From an uncultured archaeon (GTDB taxonomy: Archaea; Asgardarchaeota; Thorarchaeia; Thorarchaeales; Thorarchaeaceae), in assembly GCA_964648855.1 (NCBI GenBank), contig CAZYLT010000010.1:74919-106918 (forward strand): 32,000 bases of DNA. Direction: 5' to 3'. This document shows, piece after piece, positions 3,854-15,174 of the stretch; within the stretch, counting starts at the first letter, position 1; each line of letters starts with the position of its first letter. The notes beneath the pieces were generated by a model that saw only the letters and a list, made by a program, of their open reading frames with translations, was not told where the DNA came from and ran no database searches. The position numbers and the translations under genes were made by a program.

Positions 3854-5191
3854 ATGAACAGCTCCGCCAATCACAAGTTTCAGAATGATTCGGTCAAAAA
3901 AGAAGAGATTCTAGAATTTGATGGAAGCATTAGCCCAGAAATTACAATTCCAAATAACCGGGCAATTCTGATTCTCAGTAAAGACCAATCATTTCTATCT
4001 CATGGTATTCACAAATTTCCTGCGAAGTTCTTTCCAGAACTTCCTAGATATCTGATCCGGAAATACTCGCAGGAGGGCGCTACAGTTCTGGATCCAATGT
4101 GCGGCAGCGGCACTGTTCCACTAGAAGCAATGCTTGCGAATAGGGTCGGCATCGGGCTAGACATTGACCCTATTGCACGACTTATAACAAAGGTAAAAAC
4201 AAATCCGCTGCCATCGTCAGAGCTTAGACAAATTGTGGCTCTTTTGAGAAACTGTATCCATCAAAAGACTCGGGACCCGTCCTATTCGCCGGCAATTCCT
4301 TCATTTCATTATCGCGACAAGTGGTTTCGCGATTTCGTCCTCTTCGAGCTTGGGATGATATTGGAATGTATCAATGAAACATGCGAAGATGAACCAAGCT
4401 ATAGCCCTGAACTACATGATTTCCTCCGGGTTGTCTTCTCGTCCATTGTGAGAGATGTATCAAATGCAGACCCTTACTGCACAAGAACCGTTATCCGCAA
4501 GAAACAGATTCGTCGAATACAGCCCGGAGAAACCATTGGATTGTTCTTTGAATCTCTATGTCAGCAGAAGGAAGCAATGTTGGAACTTCTCGATTATTGT
4601 CGAACTAACGGCGTTTCTCGAACGCATCTCCCATTGGCAACTGCAACTCATATTCCTCTGGCTGATGACTCTATTGATTTGGCTATTACTTCTCCTCCGT
4701 ATATCAACGCAGTCGATTACACAAGAACCCATCAACTTGAGATGTATTGGTTGGATATGCTAGATGACGCTCCACTATCGGAGAGAAAGAGGAAATACAT
4801 AGGTACAGAAACTGTTTACAAGAGTGAGTACAAGGGTCTAAGAATCTCGGGATACAAATCCTTAGATCCATTGCTTCATTCTATTCATGAGGTGGATCCT
4901 CGACGCTCTTTCATCGTGTACAAGTTTTTTGAGGATATGAGAATCCAACTATCAGAAACGTTGCGAGTCCTCAAACCGGATGGAAAATACTGTATTGTTA
5001 TTGGAAATAACACAGTCAGGGGGCATGAGGTGAACTCTCATGAGATTCTCTCTGAAATTGCCACATCAGATGACATTGGATTCCAGCTGGAGAAGAAGTT
5101 CTTCTCTCTGCTGATTCGGCACTTCATTAAAATTCCTCGACCCGAAAGAATGAATGGGGAATGGGTCTTGATCTTCCGGAACCCCAAATGA
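3854..5191 (+). CDS. Site-specific DNA amino-methyltransferase, probably N4-cytosine; no adjacent restriction enzyme
   Basis: HGIHKFPAKF precedes the SAM-binding VLDPMCGSGT. The catalytic ITSPPY comes later, followed by RVLKPDG..IVIGN. SPPY is typical of m4C MTases. Confidence 0.88.
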   Translation: MNSSANHKFQNDSVKKEEILEFDGSISPEITIPNNRAILILSKDQSFLSHGIHKFPAKFFPELPRYLIRKYSQEGATVLDPMCGSGTVPLEAMLANRVGIGLDIDPIARLITKVKTNPLPSSELRQIVALLRNCIHQKTRDPSYSPAIPSFHYRDKWFRDFVLFELGMILECINETCEDEPSYSPELHDFLRVVFSSIVRDVSNADPYCTRTVIRKKQIRRIQPGETIGLFFESLCQQKEAMLELLDYCRTNGVSRTHLPLATATHIPLADDSIDLAITSPPYINAVDYTRTHQLEMYWLDMLDDAPLSERKRKYIGTETVYKSEYKGLRISGYKSLDPLLHSIHEVDPRRSFIVYKFFEDMRIQLSETLRVLKPDGKYCIVIGNNTVRGHEVNSHEILSEIATSDDIGFQLEKKFFSLLIRHFIKIPRPERMNGEWVLIFRNPK

Positions 5192-5662: not shown

Positions 5663-7024
5663 ATGGTGGACTATTACAAACAGGCAGATGTACGCCCCAT
5701 AGGCGAGGATCGAAGAAACCACTATACATATGAAATAGGAAAAGGTCTCATTGGCAAGCAGGTTACTTTGGTTGGTTGGGTACATATTCTCAGAGATAAG
5801 GGAAAAATCAAGTTCCTTATTCTTCGTGATGAGCGAGGAACAACTCAAATCACCATTCCTAAGAAGCGAGTACCTAAACAAGTCTTTGAAATCTCCGAGA
5901 ACCTGAAACCTGAAACAGCTGTACTCGTCAAAGGAGAAGTTGTTGCGACTGATTTTCTTCCATCCGGTGCTGAAATCATCCCATCTGAAATCCGCGTGCT
6001 AAACTGGTCAGAAACAATTCCTATAGACATAGTTGAGGGAAAGGTCGACATTGACCTTGACACGCGACTGAACTATAGAGTCCTAGACCTCCGGAAACCA
6101 AGAGTGAATGCCATATTCCGGATTCAACACTCCCTAGTCAGATTCGCACGTGAATTTCTTGAACAGAATGAATTCACTGAAATACACACTCCGAAAATTG
6201 TAGCAGCAGCAACCGAGGGTGGCGCAAACCTCTTTGAAATAAAGTACTTTGAAAAGCCAGCCTATCTAGCTCAGAGTCCTCAATTCTACAAGCAGCTTAT
6301 GCTCTTAGCGGGCTTTGGAAGGGTCTTCGAGATTGCCCCCGTATTTCGAGCTGAGAAACATAACACTCCAAGGCATATGAATGAATATACTTCATTCGAC
6401 TTCGAAATGGCTTGGATAAGCGGAGTTGAAGATGTGATGAAAATGGAAGAGCAGATGCTGCATCATGCCTTCAACAAGACAAAGCAAGTGGCCAGCAGGG
6501 AGCTGGAGCTTCTGGAAATTGAACTGCATGTCCCCAAACTACCCTTTGAGCGAATCAAATATGCGGAAGTCATCGACTTACTGCAAGATGCTGGAAAAGA
6601 GATTACATTGGAAGATGACTTAGATCCTGAATCGGAGCGAATGCTCGCAGACATATTTCCTGAGAAATTCGGTACCGATATGGTATTCATAACGCACTAT
6701 CCCACGGAGCTTCGCCCTGCTTATACCATGCCAAGTGTCACTGACGAGGGCATGACTGAGAGTTTTGACCTAACATACAAGGGAATGGAAATCACCACGG
6801 GCGGACAGAGAATCCATCTCTATGATCTACTTCTGGAGCGGTTCAAAGCCAAGGGGTTTGACCCGGACCGATTCGTCTTCTATCTTGACCCATTCAAGTA
6901 TGGTGCTCCTCCACATGGTGGGCTGGGTCTCGGAGTCGAGCGACTTACCATGCAACTTCTCGGCATAGAAAATATTCGAGAGGCTAGTCTTCTCCCGAGA
7001 GATCGTGACAGGATTACCCCCTAA
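5663..7024 (+). CDS. aspS: Aspartate--tRNA ligase, archaeal type, probably non-discriminating (Asp/Asn)
   Basis: OB-fold [10 protein letters not shown]; AATEGGA; [11 protein letters not shown]; motif 2 [11 protein letters not shown]; motif 3 [12 protein letters not shown]. Pro in the anticodon-binding loop (FLPSG) is as in non-discriminating enzymes. Confidence 0.97.
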
Positions 7025-7159: not shown

Positions 7160-7963
7160 ATGCATGACCATATTCACCAGGAGCTTTACGCTTCAATAGC
7201 TACCTTAGATCAACTCAAGAAGATGTATGACCTTGGTGCGGTTGATATCAGGTCATTCCAGCGGGAATCTGATGCTCTCGTAAACGAAGTAAAAGGTCAT
7301 TTGGATGAGATGAGGCGCATGGGTATTGATGTTGGGGGATTCATGGCAGAACAAAGAATCTTAGACGAGTTTCCAGATGCAGCAGGATTAATCGAATTCT
7401 ACCAACACAGGTCCAGACCGGCATTAGATGGATACACAATGGATGAATATTACGATCATCTGGGGTTGGCTGTTCTAGATGTTGCTACTACACACTCTGC
7501 GAAAGGCTTGTTGGGTCTAGCGGACCTGATAGTTGAGGTTGTCAACCGTGTGCCGCAGTTCAAGTCAGTCAGCTATAATGATGTCATAGAGGCGGTCAAT
7601 AGGGTCGCAGAAAACGGACTGATTCCAGGGATACGAACTCTACGTGGTGGTGTGAAAGTTGTAGAGCTTCGTCCACTAGAGCTACGCGGCGACCAATCGG
7701 ATGTGGTTAATCTTGCAGCTACGAAGGGATATACCTCTGTGGAAGAGGTCATGATGGAGCTCAAATGGTCTGAGGACCACGCTCGTCAAGTGCTATCAAG
7801 TCTAGTTGATGCGGGAATGGCTGTTGCCGATATTCGGTTCAGTACCGGCGGTAGATACTATTTCCCTGGGTTGCATCACAAGTCCTCAGATAAGGCAAAT
7901 GGTCATGAAATGCTAGATAGAAGAAGAGATGGCCGAGACTCTCCCCCAGCTCATGGCTTGTAA
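7160..7963 (+). CDS. ESCRT-II Vps22/Vps36-like (EAP30) tandem winged-helix protein with an N-terminal Vps28-like helical domain
   Basis: EYYDHLGLAVLDV...KGLLGLADL...VSYNDVIEAV...PLELRGDQSDVVNLA..KGYTSVEEVMMELKWSEDHARQVLSSLVDAGMAVAD...YYFPG follows the Vps22/EAP30 pattern. The first ~80 aa (ELYASIATLDQLKKMY..G.VD...F) resemble the Vps28 N-terminus. Lies next to vps25 and vps4. Confidence 0.85.
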   Translation: MHDHIHQELYASIATLDQLKKMYDLGAVDIRSFQRESDALVNEVKGHLDEMRRMGIDVGGFMAEQRILDEFPDAAGLIEFYQHRSRPALDGYTMDEYYDHLGLAVLDVATTHSAKGLLGLADLIVEVVNRVPQFKSVSYNDVIEAVNRVAENGLIPGIRTLRGGVKVVELRPLELRGDQSDVVNLAATKGYTSVEEVMMELKWSEDHARQVLSSLVDAGMAVADIRFSTGGRYYFPGLHHKSSDKANGHEMLDRRRDGRDSPPAHGL

Positions 7964-7977
7964 TTCTATATTCATGC

Positions 7978-8691
7978 CTAAGAAATACGAATTTTTATTG
8001 CCGCCCTTTTCTTGTCTACCCATTCAGCGAGTTCTTGTTCCACTAGAATCCCTAGGACTGTTTTGATTTCATCTTCAGGGAGACCTGCAAAATCTTGGTT
8101 ACTTTCTTGGATTACGAGCGTCTTGACATCCAACCTAGTCTTACCTGTTTCAATAGCCCATGCATAAACGATATCCGCCCAGTCTTGTATGGGTCTCCAG
8201 TAGATCCGAAGCTGTCCATTGTTTTTTCCAATCCATTCAGCAACGTCCTTTTCAACCAGCTTTTCGGCTATGAACCTGAAGGCCTTGACTTTTCCAAATA
8301 TGTCGCAAAAGGGCGGTTCAGTAATGAAGGTTGCAAGTGATATTTTGTGTGCCGTATTCCTCTGTGCCCACTCCAAGAGGAAATCCCCCCATTCATCTGC
8401 CCAGAGATTTCGGTCATCTTCTTCGATAGGGATATGGTACATCAATTCATACTCTTTGACGCTGCCCCATGATGGCAAGAAAATCTCGGGTTCAGCTGAT
8501 ACTTCCTCGACAACCTGAGTTTTGAATTCGTCTTTGATGGTCGTTATGTCTTCTTTCTCGTCGATACTGTCCACTTCAATGGCTTCGACTTCTTGCTCTT
8601 CAATTTCATCTGTTCTTGATTCAACTGTTTCTTCTTCTGAACGATCTTTTTCTTTACTCTTCTTCTCTTTTTTGCGCTCTCTGACTCCCAC
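7978..8691 (-). CDS. vps25: ESCRT-II Vps25-like subunit with a charged, probably disordered N-terminal extension
   Basis: WADEWGDFLLEW...PPF...LVEKDVAEW...LRIYWRPIQDWADIVYAWA...FAGLPEDEIKTVLGILVEQELAEW matches the Vps25 WH-WH pattern (IxWRxxxxW). Starts 3 nt after the vps4 stop. Confidence 0.9.
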   Translation of the reverse strand: MGVRERKKEKKSKEKDRSEEETVESRTDEIEEQEVEAIEVDSIDEKEDITTIKDEFKTQVVEEVSAEPEIFLPSWGSVKEYELMYHIPIEEDDRNLWADEWGDFLLEWAQRNTAHKISLATFITEPPFCDIFGKVKAFRFIAEKLVEKDVAEWIGKNNGQLRIYWRPIQDWADIVYAWAIETGKTRLDVKTLVIQESNQDFAGLPEDEIKTVLGILVEQELAEWVDKKRAAIKIRIS

Positions 8692-8694
8692 GAA

Positions 8695-9918
8695 CTATGA
8701 ACCCTCCGCCCATTCTTTGTATCTACGAATGTCTTCAGGCGATGTTGCCGGGCGAATATTTTCAATCGCATTGAGAAAGTCCAATCTTGACACTGGTCTT
8801 AATCTGAAGCCAGCTTTCTCTGTAGGAGGTATATCGCTCTGCAATTCTCTGATAGGTTCCATCGCGGCTTCTCTACATACAACGCTGATATCTCTCCCGC
8901 TGTATCCCTCTGTCAGGTCAGCAAGCTCATTGAAGTCCACATCTGGTCCGACTTCAATATCATCAATATGTATTTTGAAAATCCTGACTCTTGCGGCTTT
9001 ATTGGGGAGGGGAACATTGATCCTTTTCTCAAATCGGGATCGTAAGGCGAAATCGATGTCCCATGGTAGATTTGTGGCCCCAATGAGTGTAACTCTTTCA
9101 TCACTCTTACTTGTTAGTCCTTGAAGTTCCGTCAACAATTGGGTCTTGAGTCTTCTTTCGCCACCAACATCTTCTCCGCGCCTTGAAACCCCTATAGAAT
9201 CAAGCTCATCTATGAATATGATAGATGGCTGGTTGTCGCGCGCAGAATCGAAGAGGTGTTTAACCAATCGCTCTGATTCACCAAGCCATTTACTCACTAT
9301 ATTTGCTGCTGATACATTGAAGAAGGTGGCATTTACTTCGTTTGCAACCGCCTTGGCAATTAAGGTCTTTCCACAGCCTGCTGGTCCATAGAGTAGAATG
9401 CCTTTCCAAGGCTGCCTAGCCTTGCCTTTGAACAACTCGGGGTGCTTCATGGGTGATATGATGGCATCATGTATAGCCTGTTTTGCATCATTGAGTCCTG
9501 CAACTTCTGACATCTTGACATCAGGGCGCTCGGAGAGGATTGTATCAGAAATCATCTCGTTGAGCCTTATCTCATCCTCATCTTCCTCTTCAGGCGGGCT
9601 ACTTGCTGGTTTCTCATGTCTTATACTATCATCATGGATTGGTTCAGGCGGCCTGGCGAGACCCTTTTCTTGTCCCCTAGCTTTTTTCTTGATGCCCGAA
9701 AGATAACGAACCCTATCTACACACTCTTGAGCCCGTTTGAGGTAATGCTTTCGGACTGAAGGGAGACTCGTTGCATTTGAGAGTTTGATCAATATCTTAC
9801 TGGCTTTGAGGTATTTTTGACAGGCCTCCTTCTTCAGTCCTCTCTGGTCCAGATCGATAGCTCTGTCGAGGAGTTCTCGTAAGCCTTTATCGAGTCTAGT
9901 TCCATTGGTATCGCTCAT
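8695..9918 (-). CDS. vps4: Vps4-like AAA+ ATPase with N-terminal MIT domain
   Basis: MIT-like three-helix N-terminus (RAIDLDQRG..KEACQKY). Also WKGILLYGPAGCGKT (Walker A), pore loop SKWLGESERLV, IIFIDE (Walker B), GATNLPW, TEGYSGRDI..VCREAAMEPIR and C-terminal RYKEWAE. Confidence 0.95.
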   Translation of the reverse strand: MSDTNGTRLDKGLRELLDRAIDLDQRGLKKEACQKYLKASKILIKLSNATSLPSVRKHYLKRAQECVDRVRYLSGIKKKARGQEKGLARPPEPIHDDSIRHEKPASSPPEEEDEDEIRLNEMISDTILSERPDVKMSEVAGLNDAKQAIHDAIISPMKHPELFKGKARQPWKGILLYGPAGCGKTLIAKAVANEVNATFFNVSAANIVSKWLGESERLVKHLFDSARDNQPSIIFIDELDSIGVSRRGEDVGGERRLKTQLLTELQGLTSKSDERVTLIGATNLPWDIDFALRSRFEKRINVPLPNKAARVRIFKIHIDDIEVGPDVDFNELADLTEGYSGRDISVVCREAAMEPIRELQSDIPPTEKAGFRLRPVSRLDFLNAIENIRPATSPEDIRRYKEWAEGS

Positions 9919-10119
9919 TGTTACCCCGTTAGAAAAATGCTGTATTGGTTGTTAAGAGCTTCTGTATTGCCCACAAACTACTGAGTTTTTCGAAAAGGAT
10001 GTTTAGAACCGCGCCTTAGAAACACCCGCACAGTTTCATTCCAGATGACTGCGAAGTGTTAAAATGGCATCCATATTATTGAAAGTGAAGAAGAATCTTA
10101 CTTCTTCAGGGTGAGCAAA

Positions 10120-10734
10120 TTGGGTATCTTCAAGAAAGCCTTCTCGTGGGGACGAAAGAAGCCTGATATCAATGAAGTTACAAGTCAGCTTCGCGTTCTA
10201 TCAAAACAACTTGAAAGACAGAGAAACAAGTTGGAAAAAGAAGAACGAGATACAAAGGCAAGAGCCATCAACGCACGAAAGAACGGAAACACGGAAGCCT
10301 TTCGGACCTATGCAAAGGAAATGGTGAGATTCAGACGTTTTGCTCTCTCAATTGATAAGTCGCGTCTTCAGATTTTGAAGATACTGGCTCATATAACTCG
10401 AGCACAAACCACCGCAAAAGCATCCAAGGCCCTTGACGATGTAGCTGATATTTTGGGTCTTCTTGGAGATGCCACGGACACCTCGAAAGTAATCGAAAAT
10501 GCAGATGAAATAGCCATGCGGCTGGAAGAGTTCGAGATTGAGAGCGGAATTGCAGGTGAAGCTTTCGACTCCACAACTGAATCTGAGGTGACTTCAGATG
10601 AATTGAGTGAAGCCATGAGAGAAATAGAGGCTGCCGCCCAAGTAGAGGGTTCTACTACAGGGGCGCATCCGATGACTGAAGCAGAGGAATTGGAAGAAGC
10701 CATCAAGTCATTAGAGAAAGAACTTGGTGTTTGA
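10120..10734 (+). CDS. ESCRT-III subunit (Snf7 family), Vps2/Vps24/Vps46 class
   Basis: Basic N-terminal hairpin KQLERQRNKLEKEE...KNGNTEAFRTYAKEMVRFRR (compare CHMP2 AKDLVRTRR), an acidic C-terminal half and a terminal amphipathic helix ELEEAIKSLEKELGV (MIM1-like). TTG at 10120 follows GGTGA at 10110-10114; the track start is GTG 10111. Confidence 0.9.
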   Translation: MGIFKKAFSWGRKKPDINEVTSQLRVLSKQLERQRNKLEKEERDTKARAINARKNGNTEAFRTYAKEMVRFRRFALSIDKSRLQILKILAHITRAQTTAKASKALDDVADILGLLGDATDTSKVIENADEIAMRLEEFEIESGIAGEAFDSTTESEVTSDELSEAMREIEAAAQVEGSTTGAHPMTEAEELEEAIKSLEKELGV

Positions 10735-10735
10735 A

Positions 10736-12295
10736 TCACCATCGACGATATTCATGGGTGTCGCCATACTGGTCGAGTTCCTTTCTAATACCATACGAGT
10801 CCCGCATCAAACCTCTGTATCTTCTTATGAAGTCTTCAGGTACAATTCTTCCACTGCGGAGTAGGTCTACCGTTTCAGAGAGAGCGGATTGCAGTTCGCG
10901 TTCATTTCTCCTTAATTGCTCGAAACCCATATCGTATCCTTGATTCCTTCGTCTGCTATCTCGATGCCCAAGTGTTCTTCTGAGCTCCTCAGCCAATTCA
11001 TCTTCGTATTTCTGCTTCTTTTGGTATCTACTTTGTGGGCTCCAAGGACGGTTCACCTCATCCCGGTATGGCACATAATATCCTCTCTTTGTTTCGGGAA
11101 CTTGACTCACCTGATCAGTTGACAGAATCGAGTAGATCAGCTCCTCAATCTTCAATCTCACATCGCTGACATTAACACTGGTCGCCTCGATCTTTCGTAC
11201 CCGGTGCATGTCGTCCTGCACGTACCTATCAAACTTCTTTGCGATCTGTATGTAATCTGAGAGGACCTGTTCCGTTTGTTCGTCACAATCAACTCGAACA
11301 TCACCCTGCTTTAACTTCAAAACCAATCGTTTTCTGAACCTTCCATCCTCTTCAAGAGATTTGAGATAGGCCAAGGGGAAGTCGAAGACGACCTCTGTCT
11401 TTTTGCGTACTAGTCCAGTTTCTGCAACGAATATGAGACGCTTGTTCGTAATATACAAGATCCCTGTGGTCTTATCATGCTTCAAGAAGTCGCTCCCACT
11501 GAGTTTTATCTCGGGAATTGCACATACAGGAAGCTCGTTTACCGACAGGTCTGAATACTCGTAGAATCCCGCGAAATGCTTCCTATAGTAGTCAAGACCT
11601 TCTAGATGCTCTGTTAGTTCACCCAAATCTAATTCTAGTGCTTGGAGTGAATCGTCAATATTGCTCTTGTATTGTCGTCCGATATGAGTTACGCGATTGG
11701 TCACGCCCTCAACAAATGGGAATTGACCTGTTTCCCATGTTTGGTAATCAATGAGTCCTTTTGTTTCTGCGAGCATTTTCTTGGCTACTATCTCGGCTTG
11801 GTTTGTAACGCGATTCTTGATAGCTATGAACTCATCTTGAATCTGTTCAACCCTATCTTCGAACCACTTGAAGCCAAGAAAATTTGCCATTCTTAATGAA
11901 ACAAGAATCCTTTTCGCGGAGGCGAGCCTAGTATTGAACTCTCTGAGTTTGGTGTGGCCGTAGTGAATACTCATGACTGCATTACGCAGTTCGTGAGCTA
12001 GGTTTCTGCGTTTATCTTCAATTCCCGCAATCCGAGTTGAATAGCAATTTGGACATATCTCTTCAATACGTTTTGCAGTAACAAAACTCTGTGATTCACA
12101 CTCAGGACAATTTTCCGGTTGCTCGCCCATTGGAACCCTCCCAATATTATGATGGCACTCTGCGCACATTGTGTATTCGCTTGATTTTGAATCAAGGCAA
12201 TTTGTGCATAGCAAAGCGCCACAGTCCTCGCACATATGCGTTGAGCGATTATCGCCACAAAGGCTGCAATAATTCGATGGTGAACCTTTTGTCAA
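10736..12295 (-). CDS. Multidomain ESCRT-I-like protein: Zn fingers (6 CxxC), coiled coil, PH/GRAM/GLUE-like domain, C-terminal Vps23/37-type steadiness box
   Basis: 12 Cys in six CxxC pairs in aa 10-84 and a long helical region. TTGILYITNKRLIF...FDFPLAYLKSL is a PH-like signature. ALSETVDLLRSGRIVPEDFIRRYRGLMRDSY is steadiness-box-like. GGAGG lies upstream of the TTG start. Confidence 0.78.
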   Translation of the reverse strand: MTKGSPSNYCSLCGDNRSTHMCEDCGALLCTNCLDSKSSEYTMCAECHHNIGRVPMGEQPENCPECESQSFVTAKRIEEICPNCYSTRIAGIEDKRRNLAHELRNAVMSIHYGHTKLREFNTRLASAKRILVSLRMANFLGFKWFEDRVEQIQDEFIAIKNRVTNQAEIVAKKMLAETKGLIDYQTWETGQFPFVEGVTNRVTHIGRQYKSNIDDSLQALELDLGELTEHLEGLDYYRKHFAGFYEYSDLSVNELPVCAIPEIKLSGSDFLKHDKTTGILYITNKRLIFVAETGLVRKKTEVVFDFPLAYLKSLEEDGRFRKRLVLKLKQGDVRVDCDEQTEQVLSDYIQIAKKFDRYVQDDMHRVRKIEATSVNVSDVRLKIEELIYSILSTDQVSQVPETKRGYYVPYRDEVNRPWSPQSRYQKKQKYEDELAEELRRTLGHRDSRRRNQGYDMGFEQLRRNERELQSALSETVDLLRSGRIVPEDFIRRYRGLMRDSYGIRKELDQYGDTHEYRRW

Positions 12296-12441
12296 ATACG
12301 TGCCTCCGGCTTGTCACGTTATTAGGAATATACCCTAAGAATAACGTGTGTATTATTCTACTAATACTTGCATGGCCAACTGCACAGTACGAATTAGTTA
12401 TAATATCAGGTTTTTCAAGCAGAAATCAGGACGAAAACACT

Positions 12442-13827
12442 ATGGAGGACTTGGCAAACGCAGCGATTGCTGCAGCTCTAGATGAGGGCGTCGAATTTGT
12501 TGATGTTCGTGTAGAAGACACTCAAACAACAATTATTGAAATCAGTGATGGCGTTACAAAACGGTCCATGGCCGCCCATCTGAAAGGTGCGGGAATACGA
12601 GCATTTGTTGATGGCTCATGGGGATTCAGCCAAACGACGGATTTGACTAGGGCTGGCATGAAGAAAGCTGGTGCATCTGTTGCAAAATTGGCACTTGCTA
12701 CGCGAGAAAAAGTATCTGCTCATTTTGAAATAGACGGCCCCTCAAACAAGGCTAGATCTCCCATTTCAGTCAAGATTCCATTCTCAGATATCCACTTTGA
12801 GGACAAAATTGGGTTTGCTAAGTATATTGATGAACAGGCACAATCATACGATGATCGGATTGCTAACACACGGACAATATATGGCGACCTCCAAACTGAG
12901 CTCTATATTGTAAATTCATTTGGAACCTCCGTATACACCGAAAACTCACTTCCAAGAATCATTTCGTCATTGACCGCAACAGATGGAAAAAACCGAAGAA
13001 GGGCGTCCGAGTCAATTGGCATTAGAAGCGGATTTGAGTTCACAGAATCCGAAGAGGCCCAGTCCATAGGGTCTTCCACTGCAGAGCTTGTCATAGACTT
13101 GCTTTCTTCAAAAGCAGCACCTGGTGGAGTCTTCGATGTTGTCGTGGACCCCGTGCTTAATGGCGTGATGGTTCATGAGGCATTTGGCCACGCCTGCGAG
13201 GCTGATAATTGGCCAGCACATACCACCGTACTTGAAGATAAGATTGGAAAAGAAGTAGGTCCTGAACAATTGAATATCACGGACAATCCAAAATTGCGTG
13301 GCAAACGAGGGAGTTTTGATTTCGATTGGGAAGGAACCCCGACAAGAAAGAGGACTCTGGTCAAAGATGGTGTTCTAACAGAGTTGCTGCATGATTTAGA
13401 AACCAGCTCCAGGCTCGAAATGGACGTTAATGGTGCTGCTCGAGCACAATCGTTTATGCATCCTCCTGTCCCTCGAATGAGCAATACATACATGGAGCCC
13501 GGTGATTGGGACGTAGATGAACTTATAGCTGATACAGAATCTGGCATATTGCTTTGTAGATTCAATTATGGCTATACTGAACCAGCAAAGGGTCAATTTA
13601 TGTTTCAGGCAGGTCATGGATACATGATAGAGGGCGGCGAGCTTGGTCATATGGTGAGAGACGTATCTATTGCAGGTCATATCTTAGATATTCTGGCAAA
13701 GGTTGATGCCATTGGATCTGATTTTGAATTAGACGCAGGAAACTGTGGAAAAGGCGGCCAGGTTGTACCTGATATGAGTGGAGGCCCACATGCACGAATT
13801 CGTAATGTCCCTGTTGGAGGGATGTGA
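12442..13827 (+). CDS. tldD: TldD family metalloprotease subunit
   Basis: GAGIRAFVDGSWGFS, HEAFGHACEAD (HExxxH), FDWEG, PRMSNTY and C-terminal GNCGKGGQ. Start moved to ATG 12442 to avoid overlap with the divergent gene. Confidence 0.93.
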   Translation: MEDLANAAIAAALDEGVEFVDVRVEDTQTTIIEISDGVTKRSMAAHLKGAGIRAFVDGSWGFSQTTDLTRAGMKKAGASVAKLALATREKVSAHFEIDGPSNKARSPISVKIPFSDIHFEDKIGFAKYIDEQAQSYDDRIANTRTIYGDLQTELYIVNSFGTSVYTENSLPRIISSLTATDGKNRRRASESIGIRSGFEFTESEEAQSIGSSTAELVIDLLSSKAAPGGVFDVVVDPVLNGVMVHEAFGHACEADNWPAHTTVLEDKIGKEVGPEQLNITDNPKLRGKRGSFDFDWEGTPTRKRTLVKDGVLTELLHDLETSSRLEMDVNGAARAQSFMHPPVPRMSNTYMEPGDWDVDELIADTESGILLCRFNYGYTEPAKGQFMFQAGHGYMIEGGELGHMVRDVSIAGHILDILAKVDAIGSDFELDAGNCGKGGQVVPDMSGGPHARIRNVPVGGM

Positions 13828-15174
13828 ATGAGTTATCTCTGTGATGTGGCAAACAGAGCTCTTCAAGCTGCTGAGAAAGAAGGCGCTCAACAGTCTGAGG
13901 CCTATGTGTCATCGACGAAATTGTTCCAAATCGAGGTAGAGAATTCGGCGGTAAAGGGTGCAGAACATAGCTTGGACCAGGGCTGCGGTGTTCGCTCAGT
14001 AATAGACAAGAGAATTGGTTTTGCATATGTGACTAATCTTGATAAACAACAAGTAGTTACTGTAGGAAAGAAATCTGCTGAACTTGCAAAATGCTCAATT
14101 CCAGACCCAGATTTTGTTACGCTACCATCCGAACAAGAATCCTACCCAGAAATCGCAGGATTATTCGATTCGACTATGATGAAACTGGATGCTGAAGCGA
14201 CAGCGGATTTATTGATTGCAGCTGTTGATTCGACGTTGAGCATTCTTGAGGGAAAAAATCCTGCTGTTGAAGGAAAAATATCCATTAGAGTCAATACAAG
14301 AGCTGTTGTGAATTCGCTGGGCATTGAGAGTAGTACTAAGAGTACGATTGCGTACTTGTATACATATCCGACAATAAAGGAATCCGGTCAACAAACATCA
14401 GGATACGAATTCCAAGTAACCAGAAAGATGAAAGACCTCGATCCTCGCTGGGTTGGACAGGAGGCCGCCAAATCCGCGTTAGCCAATCTTGGTCCAAGCA
14501 CAATAGATGGAGGTCAATTGCCAGTCATACTTACTCCTCTTGCTGTCAGTTCTATAATCGGTTTAGGATTTTCAGGTGCACTTGATGCAGAAGAAATCCA
14601 ATATGGGCGATCCTATATCTCTGATGATATTGGCTCAATGGTTGGTTCTTCTGAGTTAACAATCACCGACGATGGAACCTTGGAATGTGGAATCGGTTCA
14701 AGGCCATTTGACGCAGAAGGCGTTCGTTCTCAAAAGACTCCTATCATGGAGAAGGGGGTTCTCAAGAGCTACCTTCACAACTCCTACACTGCGAACAAGG
14801 ACCAAGTAGAAAACACAGCAAACGCAGCCCGCGCATCATATGCTGGGCTCCCAGCTATATCGGCATCAAACTTCACTGTAGCACCAGGGCGTGGAACAGT
14901 TGAGGATTTCATCTCAGAAATTGACCGAGGAGTTCTCTGTCGTAACACGGCTGACCGCCCGAATATGACTACTGGCGAGCTAAGTGCAATGATCATGGAT
15001 GGATTCTATGTTGAGAATGGAGAAATTCAACACCCTCTGAAGAACACCCTTGTTGGAATTAATATGTGCGACTTATTGAAGCGGATCTCTCTTGTTGGAG
15101 ATGATAGTCGCACTACGTTTTCAATTACGAGTCCGAGTATTGTTTTAGAATCAGCAAGGATTACTTCCGGATAG
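13828..15174 (+). CDS. pmbA: PmbA/TldE family protein, non-catalytic partner of TldD
   Basis: GCGVRSVIDKRIGFAY, RPFDAEGV, GVLKSYLHNSYTA and GFYVENGEI; no HExxxH. Directly abuts tldD. Confidence 0.92.
   Translation: MSYLCDVANRALQAAEKEGAQQSEAYVSSTKLFQIEVENSAVKGAEHSLDQGCGVRSVIDKRIGFAYVTNLDKQQVVTVGKKSAELAKCSIPDPDFVTLPSEQESYPEIAGLFDSTMMKLDAEATADLLIAAVDSTLSILEGKNPAVEGKISIRVNTRAVVNSLGIESSTKSTIAYLYTYPTIKESGQQTSGYEFQVTRKMKDLDPRWVGQEAAKSALANLGPSTIDGGQLPVILTPLAVSSIIGLGFSGALDAEEIQYGRSYISDDIGSMVGSSELTITDDGTLECGIGSRPFDAEGVRSQKTPIMEKGVLKSYLHNSYTANKDQVENTANAARASYAGLPAISASNFTVAPGRGTVEDFISEIDRGVLCRNTADRPNMTTGELSAMIMDGFYVENGEIQHPLKNTLVGINMCDLLKRISLVGDDSRTTFSITSPSIVLESARITSG

Follow-up and report, generated by a model that had tools for sequence, protein, structure and literature searches.

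A Vps28 N-terminal domain fused to Vps22 winged helices in the ESCRT locus of a Thorarchaeota genome

The ESCRT locus and the composition of the fusion protein

The window, a stretch of 32,000 nucleotides, belongs to a Thorarchaeota metagenome-assembled genome (MAG) of 62 contigs that is 94.6% complete. Between aspS (5663–7024) and a run of ESCRT genes lies an open reading frame of 267 amino acids on the forward strand (7160–7963), designated P0001, whose translation contains the residues quoted in an initial annotation of the sequence. Close homologues from NCBI, JGI, ENA and Logan assemblies form 137 clusters that share the same architecture of 245–280 aa. The starting methionine is conserved, and the named homologues come nearly all from Thorarchaeota MAGs.

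Convergent with the fusion gene, on the opposite strand and 15 nt from its stop codon, is the gene for the ESCRT-II subunit Vps25 (7978–8691, reverse strand; Pfam ESCRT-II, PF05871, 4e-13). The encoded protein has an acidic N-terminal extension, is the sole Vps25 copy found in the window's genome, and is expected to be the partner of the Vps22 winged helices in the fusion protein. It is followed by Vps4 (8695–9918, reverse strand), which has MIT, AAA (Pfam 3.6e-41) and Vps4_C regions, and by an ESCRT-III subunit of the Snf7 family (10111–10734, forward strand; Pfam Snf7, 4.3e-10). The next gene (10736–12295, reverse strand) encodes P0272, a 519-aa zinc-ribbon, coiled-coil, PH and putative steadiness-box protein with weak matches to B-box, zinc-ribbon, bacterial PH, GRAM and Vps36-GLUE profiles. 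P0272 is the putative ESCRT-I-like partner of the fusion protein. No ubiquitin was detected in the 94.6%-complete genome, the sole trace being a sub-threshold E2-like open reading frame, which agrees with the report that Thorarchaeota are without ubiquitin (Hatano et al. 2022, PMC9192718).

The full-length fusion protein was modelled by AlphaFold2 with a mean pLDDT of 80. The N-terminal head (aa 5–85, 7172–7414), assigned as a Vps28 N-terminal (steadiness-box) domain from hhalign, PDB-profile and fold matches, consists of a helical hairpin (residues 2–24 and 30–53) and subsequent short helices at residues 58–64, 67–70 and 72–82. A poorly conserved linker (aa 86–93, 7415–7438), marked by variable alignment columns with indels and by low model confidence (pLDDT below 50 at residues 82–87, with a block mean of 50 for residues 81–90), is presumed to be the fusion junction. 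The tandem winged-helix domains of Vps22/EAP30 (aa 94–239, 7439–7876) were placed from Pfam EAP30, human SNF8 and the fold, with WH1 at approximately residues 94–172 and WH2 at approximately 177–236. The C-terminal tail (aa 240–267 and the stop codon, 7877–7963) is disordered, with a pLDDT below 50 at residues 240–258 and 265–267, and lacks conservation among the homologues.

The winged-helix body is well defined by sequence. Pfam EAP30 (PF04157) matches aa 92–224 with 50.1 bits (E = 3.9e-13; cut-off 26.8 bits) and covers profile positions 83–218 of 219. Residues 94–240 of human SNF8 align to aa 95–239 of the fusion with an E-value of 8e-16, and yeast Vps22 is matched weakly. Fold matches for WH1 included yeast Vps22 (1u5t_A, Z = 9.7) and its human counterpart (2zme_A, Z = 9.6) amid many generic winged helices. 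Vps22/SNF8 chains alone matched the fusion by sequence, with no Vps36 chain among them, and judged from these comparisons the C-terminal half is nearer Vps22 than Vps36. The body had been described as Vps22/36-like in the initial annotation.

Two modules are missing from the fusion protein. Pfam VPS28 is matched only as far as profile position 61–75 of 188 in the head and its homologues, and the four-helix bundle at the C-terminus of Vps28 is absent: in the AlphaFold2 model, a linker of about 10 aa runs straight into WH1. Also absent from the fusion is the canonical N-terminal helical domain of Vps22, which corresponds to EAP30 profile positions 1–82. The replacement of this domain was missed by the initial annotation. 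Elsewhere in the window's genome, a conserved 418-aa Thorarchaeal protein is encoded that has a faint Vps28-like signal; the loss of every module resembling the C-terminal bundle is unproven on account of this protein.

Identity, distribution and possible origin of the Vps28 head

Residues ~5–85 of the fusion are confirmed as truly homologous to the N-terminal domain of Vps28. In the first 90 aa of the homologues, PF03997 (VPS28) is matched more often than any other Pfam family, in 19 of 23 at E ≤ 1 with a best value of 4e-5, and the matched part is in every case the beginning of the profile. For the head encoded in the window, the match is weak (E = 0.09–0.11, aa 8–64 on profile positions 3–61) and lies below the gathering score, with 12.7–12.9 bits vs 24.5; among the homologues, 24.1 bits is the highest score. 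When the window's genome was searched in six frames with PF03997, nothing was obtained at E ≤ 10, a null that marks a limit of sensitivity since the match at the protein level is just E ~0.1. A tailored head profile identified exactly one copy in the same genome.

When a profile of the homologue N-termini was searched against PDB sequences, the top four matches were yeast Vps28 N-terminal domains (2f6m_B, 2p22_B, 2f66_B and 2caz_B, E = 0.007–0.012). Across 151 genomes of the phylum, the N-terminal profile matched the starts of PF03997-positive, full-length Vps28 genes with E-values of 1e-10 to 1e-20. The profile check of the head against Vps28 was run as hhalign with an alignment of 11 Asgard Vps28 proteins and returned 99.4% (E = 1.8e-21) over 81 columns. 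An ELYA(S/C)IATLD motif is near-identical between the consensus sequences of the Thor head and Asgard Vps28.

The predicted fold leads to the same assignment. Modelled alone, the head had a pLDDT of 86.5 (AlphaFold2), and the best 12 Foldseek matches were all Vps28 N-terminal chains (TM 0.54–0.72), with E-values for this 90-aa domain all above 0.001. In an exhaustive VIA-align search, the head superimposed on human VPS28 from the ESCRT-I headpiece (6vme_E) with Z = 11.5–11.9 over 79–80 aa at 1.8–2.0 Å, and on yeast Vps28 (2caz_E) with Z = 9.1; generic hairpins were next at 7.5. Hairpins of Vps23 align over just ~57 residues (Z = 6.9), so the match is to the Vps28 version specifically. The helical domains of eukaryotic Vps22 and Vps36 were absent from the fold matches of Foldseek and VIA-align, which is no proof that the folds differ. 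On these data, the initial annotation was correct in placing a Vps28 N-terminal domain in the first ~80 aa (hhalign 99.4%, E = 1.8e-21; fold Z 11.5–11.9), as it was in describing EAP30 winged helices directly after it without a Vps28 C-terminal domain (Pfam EAP30 3.9e-13, AlphaFold2).

The distribution of the fusion was determined among 151 genomes across the phylum, of which 27, including the window's own, belong to the same family and one to a sister family; the figures refer to this sample, in which a missing gene is one not found among the genomes searched rather than one proven absent. The Vps28 head was found in 26 of the 27 family genomes and in the sister-family genome, as a single copy in each. 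It always starts a Vps22 reading frame of 246–320 aa without internal stops, one copy being truncated by its contig to 191 aa. In other Asgard families, the head sits on Vps28 proteins of ~205–235 aa or on fusion proteins of 467–494 aa. PF03997 above the Pfam cut-off was found in 0 of the 27 family genomes vs 101 of 151 across the phylum. Within the 151 genomes sampled, the fusion and stand-alone Vps28 are mutually exclusive, and the Vps28N-Vps22 chimera is specific to the Thorarchaeota lineage.

The canonical Vps22 N-terminus was followed in the same manner. In other Asgard families, a profile search located it on reading frames of ~240–255 aa with E-values of 1e-18 to 1e-33. In Thorarchaeota, it was matched weakly (E = 1e-4 to 1e-9) and only inside a second EAP30 paralogue of ~780–880 aa, represented in the window's genome by an open frame of 831 aa on contig C5. 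By hhalign, the profile of canonical Vps22 N-termini scored 0.6% against the Thor head and 0.25% against Vps28. Since the canonical N-termini are related to neither, the head is a replacement of the Vps22 helical domain and not a diverged copy of it. The other ~240-aa EAP30-family homologues, which are non-Thor sequences from a representative library with unlabelled taxa, were considered as carriers of the Vps28 head and rejected: their N-termini match EAP30 positions 1–71 and never VPS28.

Two other accounts of the N-terminal region were weighed. That the first ~90 aa are a diverged Vps22/EAP30 helical domain, with a likeness to Vps28 that reflects generic helical-hairpin resemblance, draws on the length and position of the head, which coincide with those of the Vps22 helical domain (residue 94 of human SNF8 is aligned to query residue 95), on the many middling fold matches that helical hairpins give (Z = 6–7.5), and on the E ~0.1 of the window's own Pfam VPS28 match. 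This account is very improbable, and is refuted by the hhalign comparisons that returned 99.4% to Asgard Vps28 vs 0.6% to canonical Vps22 N-termini; moreover, the additional short helices that distinguish the Vps28 N-terminal domain are included in the fold match (80 residues, Z = 11.5, vs ~57 residues, Z = 6.9, for Vps23 hairpins). More improbable still is an artefact of assembly or gene calling, with a frameshift or a chimeric contig joining two neighbouring genes. In its favour, vps28 neighbours vps22 in other Asgard genomes and the source is a MAG of 62 contigs. However, the architecture recurs in 137 clusters and, free of internal stops, in 26 of the 27 genomes of the family, and the reading frame holds no remnants of the Vps28 C-terminal domain or the Vps22 helical domain. 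Recurrence across independent assemblies refutes the artefact.

Gene order in other lineages suggests how the fusion may have arisen. Two non-Thor loci have the genes in the order UEV-Vps23, Vps28, Vps22, with vps28 and vps22 separated by an 18-nt gap or overlapping by 4 nt. Of 78 non-Thor Asgard genomes, 63 have the two genes on the same strand, with vps22 starting at most 1.1 kb downstream from where vps28 starts; in 27 of these 63, the distance between starts is 0.58–0.72 kb, as for directly adjacent genes. In nine further non-Thor genomes, the distance is 2–3.5 kb. Because vps28 directly precedes vps22 in the same direction in most other Asgard genomes, a deletion across the vps28-vps22 boundary is a plausible origin, with synteny in other lineages as its basis. 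By a single in-frame deletion, vps28 would lose its 3' half and vps22 its 5' third, together with the spacer between them, and if the deletion ran from the end of the Vps28 N-terminal domain to the start of Vps22 WH1, it would yield exactly the Thor protein. P0258 and P0267 (370 aa, aligning over query residues 20–241) were considered as intermediates and rejected, as they are EAP30 proteins without a Vps28 signal.

Predicted docking on the neighbouring protein and a model of the adaptor

The C-terminal region of P0272 (aa 455–519, 10739–10933, reverse strand) is a helical hairpin and a putative steadiness box of the Vps23 type, from a conserved motif, weak matches to Vps23_core and a model of the complex. 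The motif EDFIRRY (aa 487–493) is invariant in 26 homologues and lies within the conserved stretch EDFIRRYRGLMRDSY (aa 487–501). Vps23_core matches 10 of 26 members of the P0272 family with a best E-value of 0.029, and Mod_r matches 2 of 26. An hhalign comparison with the C-termini of Asgard Vps23 proteins gave a weak match in the expected register (E = 0.0036, 9%), and a search of PDB sequences with the profile of the P0272 C-terminus gave no match to Vps23, Vps37 or TSG101. At the level of sequence, the steadiness-box assignment is therefore weak. The Thor head itself scored 1.5% against the P0272 C-terminus and 0.5% against Asgard Vps23 C-termini by hhalign, and for this reason the Vps28-type and Vps23-type hairpins are regarded as unlinked at the sequence level here. 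A 76-aa reading frame on contig C24, which matched the partner hairpin weakly (E = 0.012), was set aside, as it looks like a chance match or a SHOCT-like motif.

Docking of the head on the protein at 10736–12295 had been proposed in the initial annotation and is supported in silico. A complex of P0272 aa 440–519 with P0001 aa 1–92 was modelled with an ipSAE of 0.69 (median of 3 runs), vs 0.02 for the best of 3 controls. Of 80 solved complexes, 58 attain this ipSAE mark, as do 2 of 110 mismatched pairs, rates that are approximate here because the analysis used its own alignments. The runs share at least 93% of their contacts, and the partner has a pLDDT of at least 77. The predicted interface is formed on the head side by residues 3–40, including helix 1 with the invariant A11, A14, T15 and L16, and on the P0272 side by aa 476–505 with EDFIRRY included. 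It would bring the best-conserved residues of each domain together, P0272 487–501 among them. As complexes of Vps23 with Vps28 have been solved, the pass of the model may partly reflect likeness to known structures. The modelling nonetheless supports docking of the head on the P0272 C-terminal hairpin.

A different function for the head would be self-association, in which it serves mainly as a module for a Vps22 homodimer at the core of Asgard ESCRT-II. This function would be compatible with docking on P0272, and as the main role of the head it is unlikely. Vps22 of Heimdall-, Loki- and Thorarchaeota self-interacts in yeast two-hybrid assays (Hatano et al. 2022, PMC9192718), and in eukaryotic ESCRT-II, Vps22 and Vps36 are believed to pair with the help of their N-terminal helical domains (Makarova et al. 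2024, PMC10936438). The Vps22 helical domain is precisely the part that is replaced in the Thor fusion, and given that Thorarchaeal Vps22 self-interacts, the head might serve dimerisation instead of, or in addition to, docking. However, Loki and Heimdall Vps22 self-interact while keeping the canonical helical domain, and the self-interaction thus need not involve the head. The heterodimer model also counts against self-association, with its score of 0.69 vs 0.02 for the controls. In the solved ESCRT-I structures (2caz, 2f6m, 6vme), the Vps28 N-terminal domain pairs with Vps23 and not with itself, which argues in the same direction.

The explanation that we consider likely is a chimeric ESCRT adaptor, in which a Vps28 head is joined by a short and flexible linker to Vps22 winged helices and replaces the other module of both parent proteins. 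The Vps28-type hairpin would pack on the C-terminal hairpin of P0272 in the manner of Vps28 on Vps23 in the headpiece of eukaryotic ESCRT-I, and the winged helices would bind Vps25, which would recruit ESCRT-III and Vps4. A PH/Zn-ribbon module that may bind membrane or cargo would in this manner be tied to the ESCRT-II/III machinery with one fewer non-covalent link, and the covalent tie would have arisen in a lineage without detectable ubiquitin. The fusion probably hard-wires two membrane-sorting complexes together. That it would yield a constitutive ESCRT-I/II supercomplex and make the Vps28 C-terminal domain unnecessary, as was proposed in the initial annotation, are reasonable inferences.

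A broader version of the chimeric adaptor is more tentative, and we give it somewhat less than an even chance: ESCRT-I and ESCRT-II of Thorarchaeota would have collapsed, by one deletion at the vps28-vps22 boundary, into a hard-wired, ubiquitin-independent adaptor that mirrors the layout of Vps36. In eukaryotic Vps36, a PH/GLUE domain and zinc fingers are joined to winged helices. The chimera and the Zn-ribbon/PH/steadiness-box protein, if paired by their hairpins, would rebuild this layout in two chains, and the ~800-aa second EAP30 paralogue could form the second arm of the complex.

Comparison with known ESCRT systems

Among prokaryotic systems, Asgard ESCRT is the nearest relative of the eukaryotic membrane-sorting machinery, and the fusion illustrates the ease with which ESCRT modules are re-cut. 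Factors as yet unknown have been suggested to bridge Asgard ESCRT-I and ESCRT-II (Hatano et al. 2022, PMC9192718). As a natural covalent chimera, Vps28N-Vps22 offers a simple two-protein system in which the link between ESCRT-I and ESCRT-II may be studied in vitro.

The initial annotation had expressed doubt over whether this fusion was already reported. It is known and was published in 2024: the Asgard Vps22 family cog.002769 is described as fused to SB (Makarova et al. 2024, mBio, PMC10936438), and Table S3 of that study lists residues 1–70 of the Thorarchaeota Vps22 KXH75178.1 as a match to PF03997, 'VPS28 protein (N-terminal domain - SB)', with a probability of 99. Proteins of the P0272 type are described there as the 'Znr_CC_PH_SB' family (PMC10936438). 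Orthologues of the fusion gene, Vps25 and the SB protein had also been cloned from Thor AB_25 (Hatano et al. 2022, PMC9192718); in the supplement of that study, ThorAB25_09030, labelled 'Vps22', starts with the same ELFASIATLDQLKK motif as the fusion, and the homologue of P0272 is labelled ThorAB25_08990|SB. To the published fusion, the present analysis adds the replacement of the Vps22 helical domain, the exclusion of stand-alone Vps28 in the 151 genomes sampled, a plausible one-step origin by deletion drawn from gene adjacency, and the predicted docking of the head on the neighbouring steadiness-box protein.

The SB-fused Vps22 ('Vps22#', cog.002769) has the same architecture and lineage as the fusion, with EAP30 winged helices after the SB; KXH75178.1 was compared by its published description. 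In the published Thor locus, the genes for Vps25 and the 'SB' protein follow the same order relative to the fusion gene as in the window. While the text of Makarova et al. assigns the SB fusion to Asgard Vps22 generally, the Vps28 head was found on Vps22 in this sample only in the genomes of the window's family and in the sister-family genome; the other Asgard Vps22 proteins sampled have the canonical helical domain instead.

Compared with Vps28 itself (PF03997; 2caz, 2f6m and 2p22 from yeast, 6vme from human), the head of the fusion is homologous in sequence and fold, and the same mode of pairing with a hairpin of the Vps23 type is predicted for it. In Vps28, the C-terminal four-helix bundle docks on ESCRT-II. 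In contrast, the fusion has neither the Vps28 linker nor this bundle and is attached covalently to ESCRT-II winged helices. With Vps22/SNF8/EAP30 (PF04157; 1u5t, 2zme, 3cuq), the fusion shares the tandem winged helices, at 24–25% identity to human SNF8 in structure-based alignments (2zme_A, 3cuq_A), but carries the Vps28 head in place of the N-terminal helical domain. A UEV-Vps23-Vps28 fusion reported from Heimdallarchaeota (Hatano et al. 2022, PMC9192718) likewise unites in a single chain ESCRT-I modules that eukaryotes have on separate proteins; the phylum-wide searches also gave reading frames of 467–494 aa with the Vps28 domain. The Heimdallarchaeota fusion is confined to ESCRT-I and retains Vps28 in full, whereas the Thor fusion crosses the boundary between ESCRT-I and ESCRT-II and discards the Vps28 C-terminal domain.

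The Vps25 homologue and other ORFs of the window

The Vps25 homologue is encoded at 7978-8691 (-), and its PF05871 match (aa 94-186) is preceded by an acidic, low-complexity N-terminal extension of approximately 75 aa. The N-termini of some Asgard Vps25 proteins resemble steadiness boxes (Makarova 2024, PMC10936438).

Two neighboring ORFs at 12091-15174 (+) resemble a peptidase pair of the TldD/PmbA (TldD/TldE) type. As listed, the first is 578 aa long from a GTG at 12091 and overlaps the 5' end of the gene for the 519-aa Zn-ribbon/PH protein; its true start is probably further in, near the motif MEDLANAAI. In the 445-aa ORF at 3854-5191 (+), the sequence TSPPYINAVDY includes an SPPY motif typical of N4/N6 DNA methyltransferases.

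E2/UEV-like and Vps28-like signals elsewhere in the genome

Across the genome to which the window belongs (G000, 94.6% complete), ubiquitin (PF00240) was not found. The sole E2/UEV-like signal came from a 148-aa ORF, in which UQ_con was matched below its threshold (24.6 bits; G000:C42:5464-5637).

A 418-aa all-helical protein (G000:C7:37693-38946; loci L018/L019), kept in 30 of the 31 genomes of the family, belongs to a protein family with a faint Vps28 signal: PF03997 was matched in 6 of 19 members, at best with an E-value of 2e-4. A comparison with the C-terminal domain of Xenopus Vps28 (2j9w_A) also gave a faint match (E = 0.21). Possibly this is the protein listed as "BAR-SB" (KXH73277.1) in Table S3 of Makarova 2024 (PMC10936438); in that case, a module resembling the Vps28 C-terminal domain could persist outside the ESCRT locus.

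Separate vps28 and vps22 genes in other Asgard genomes

At two loci from non-Thorarchaeal Asgard genomes (L004, 617-2853; L010, 647-2852), UEV-Vps23, Vps28 and Vps22 are encoded in this order in a tight operon. The UEV-Vps23 protein is 263 aa in length with UQ_con, UEV and Vps23_core domains, while Vps28 has 222 aa and Vps22 has 244-250 aa. The vps28 and vps22 genes there are either separated by 18 nt or overlap by 4 nt. The two genes are adjacent in 63 of 78 non-Thorarchaeal genomes.

A large second EAP30 protein

A second EAP30 protein (G000:C5:44892-48503; locus L040) is far larger than the Vps22 of the window, with an open frame of 831 aa, or 725 aa when counted from the locus's first start. 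Its N-terminal two-thirds are rich in coiled coil, followed by an almost full-length C-terminal EAP30 domain (G000:C5:46392-47003; profile 18-215, E = 5e-8) that contains the canonical helical domain lost from the window's Vps22. Most genomes of the family carry homologous ORFs of approximately 780-880 aa. By analogy with Vps36, this protein is a possible second arm of ESCRT-II.
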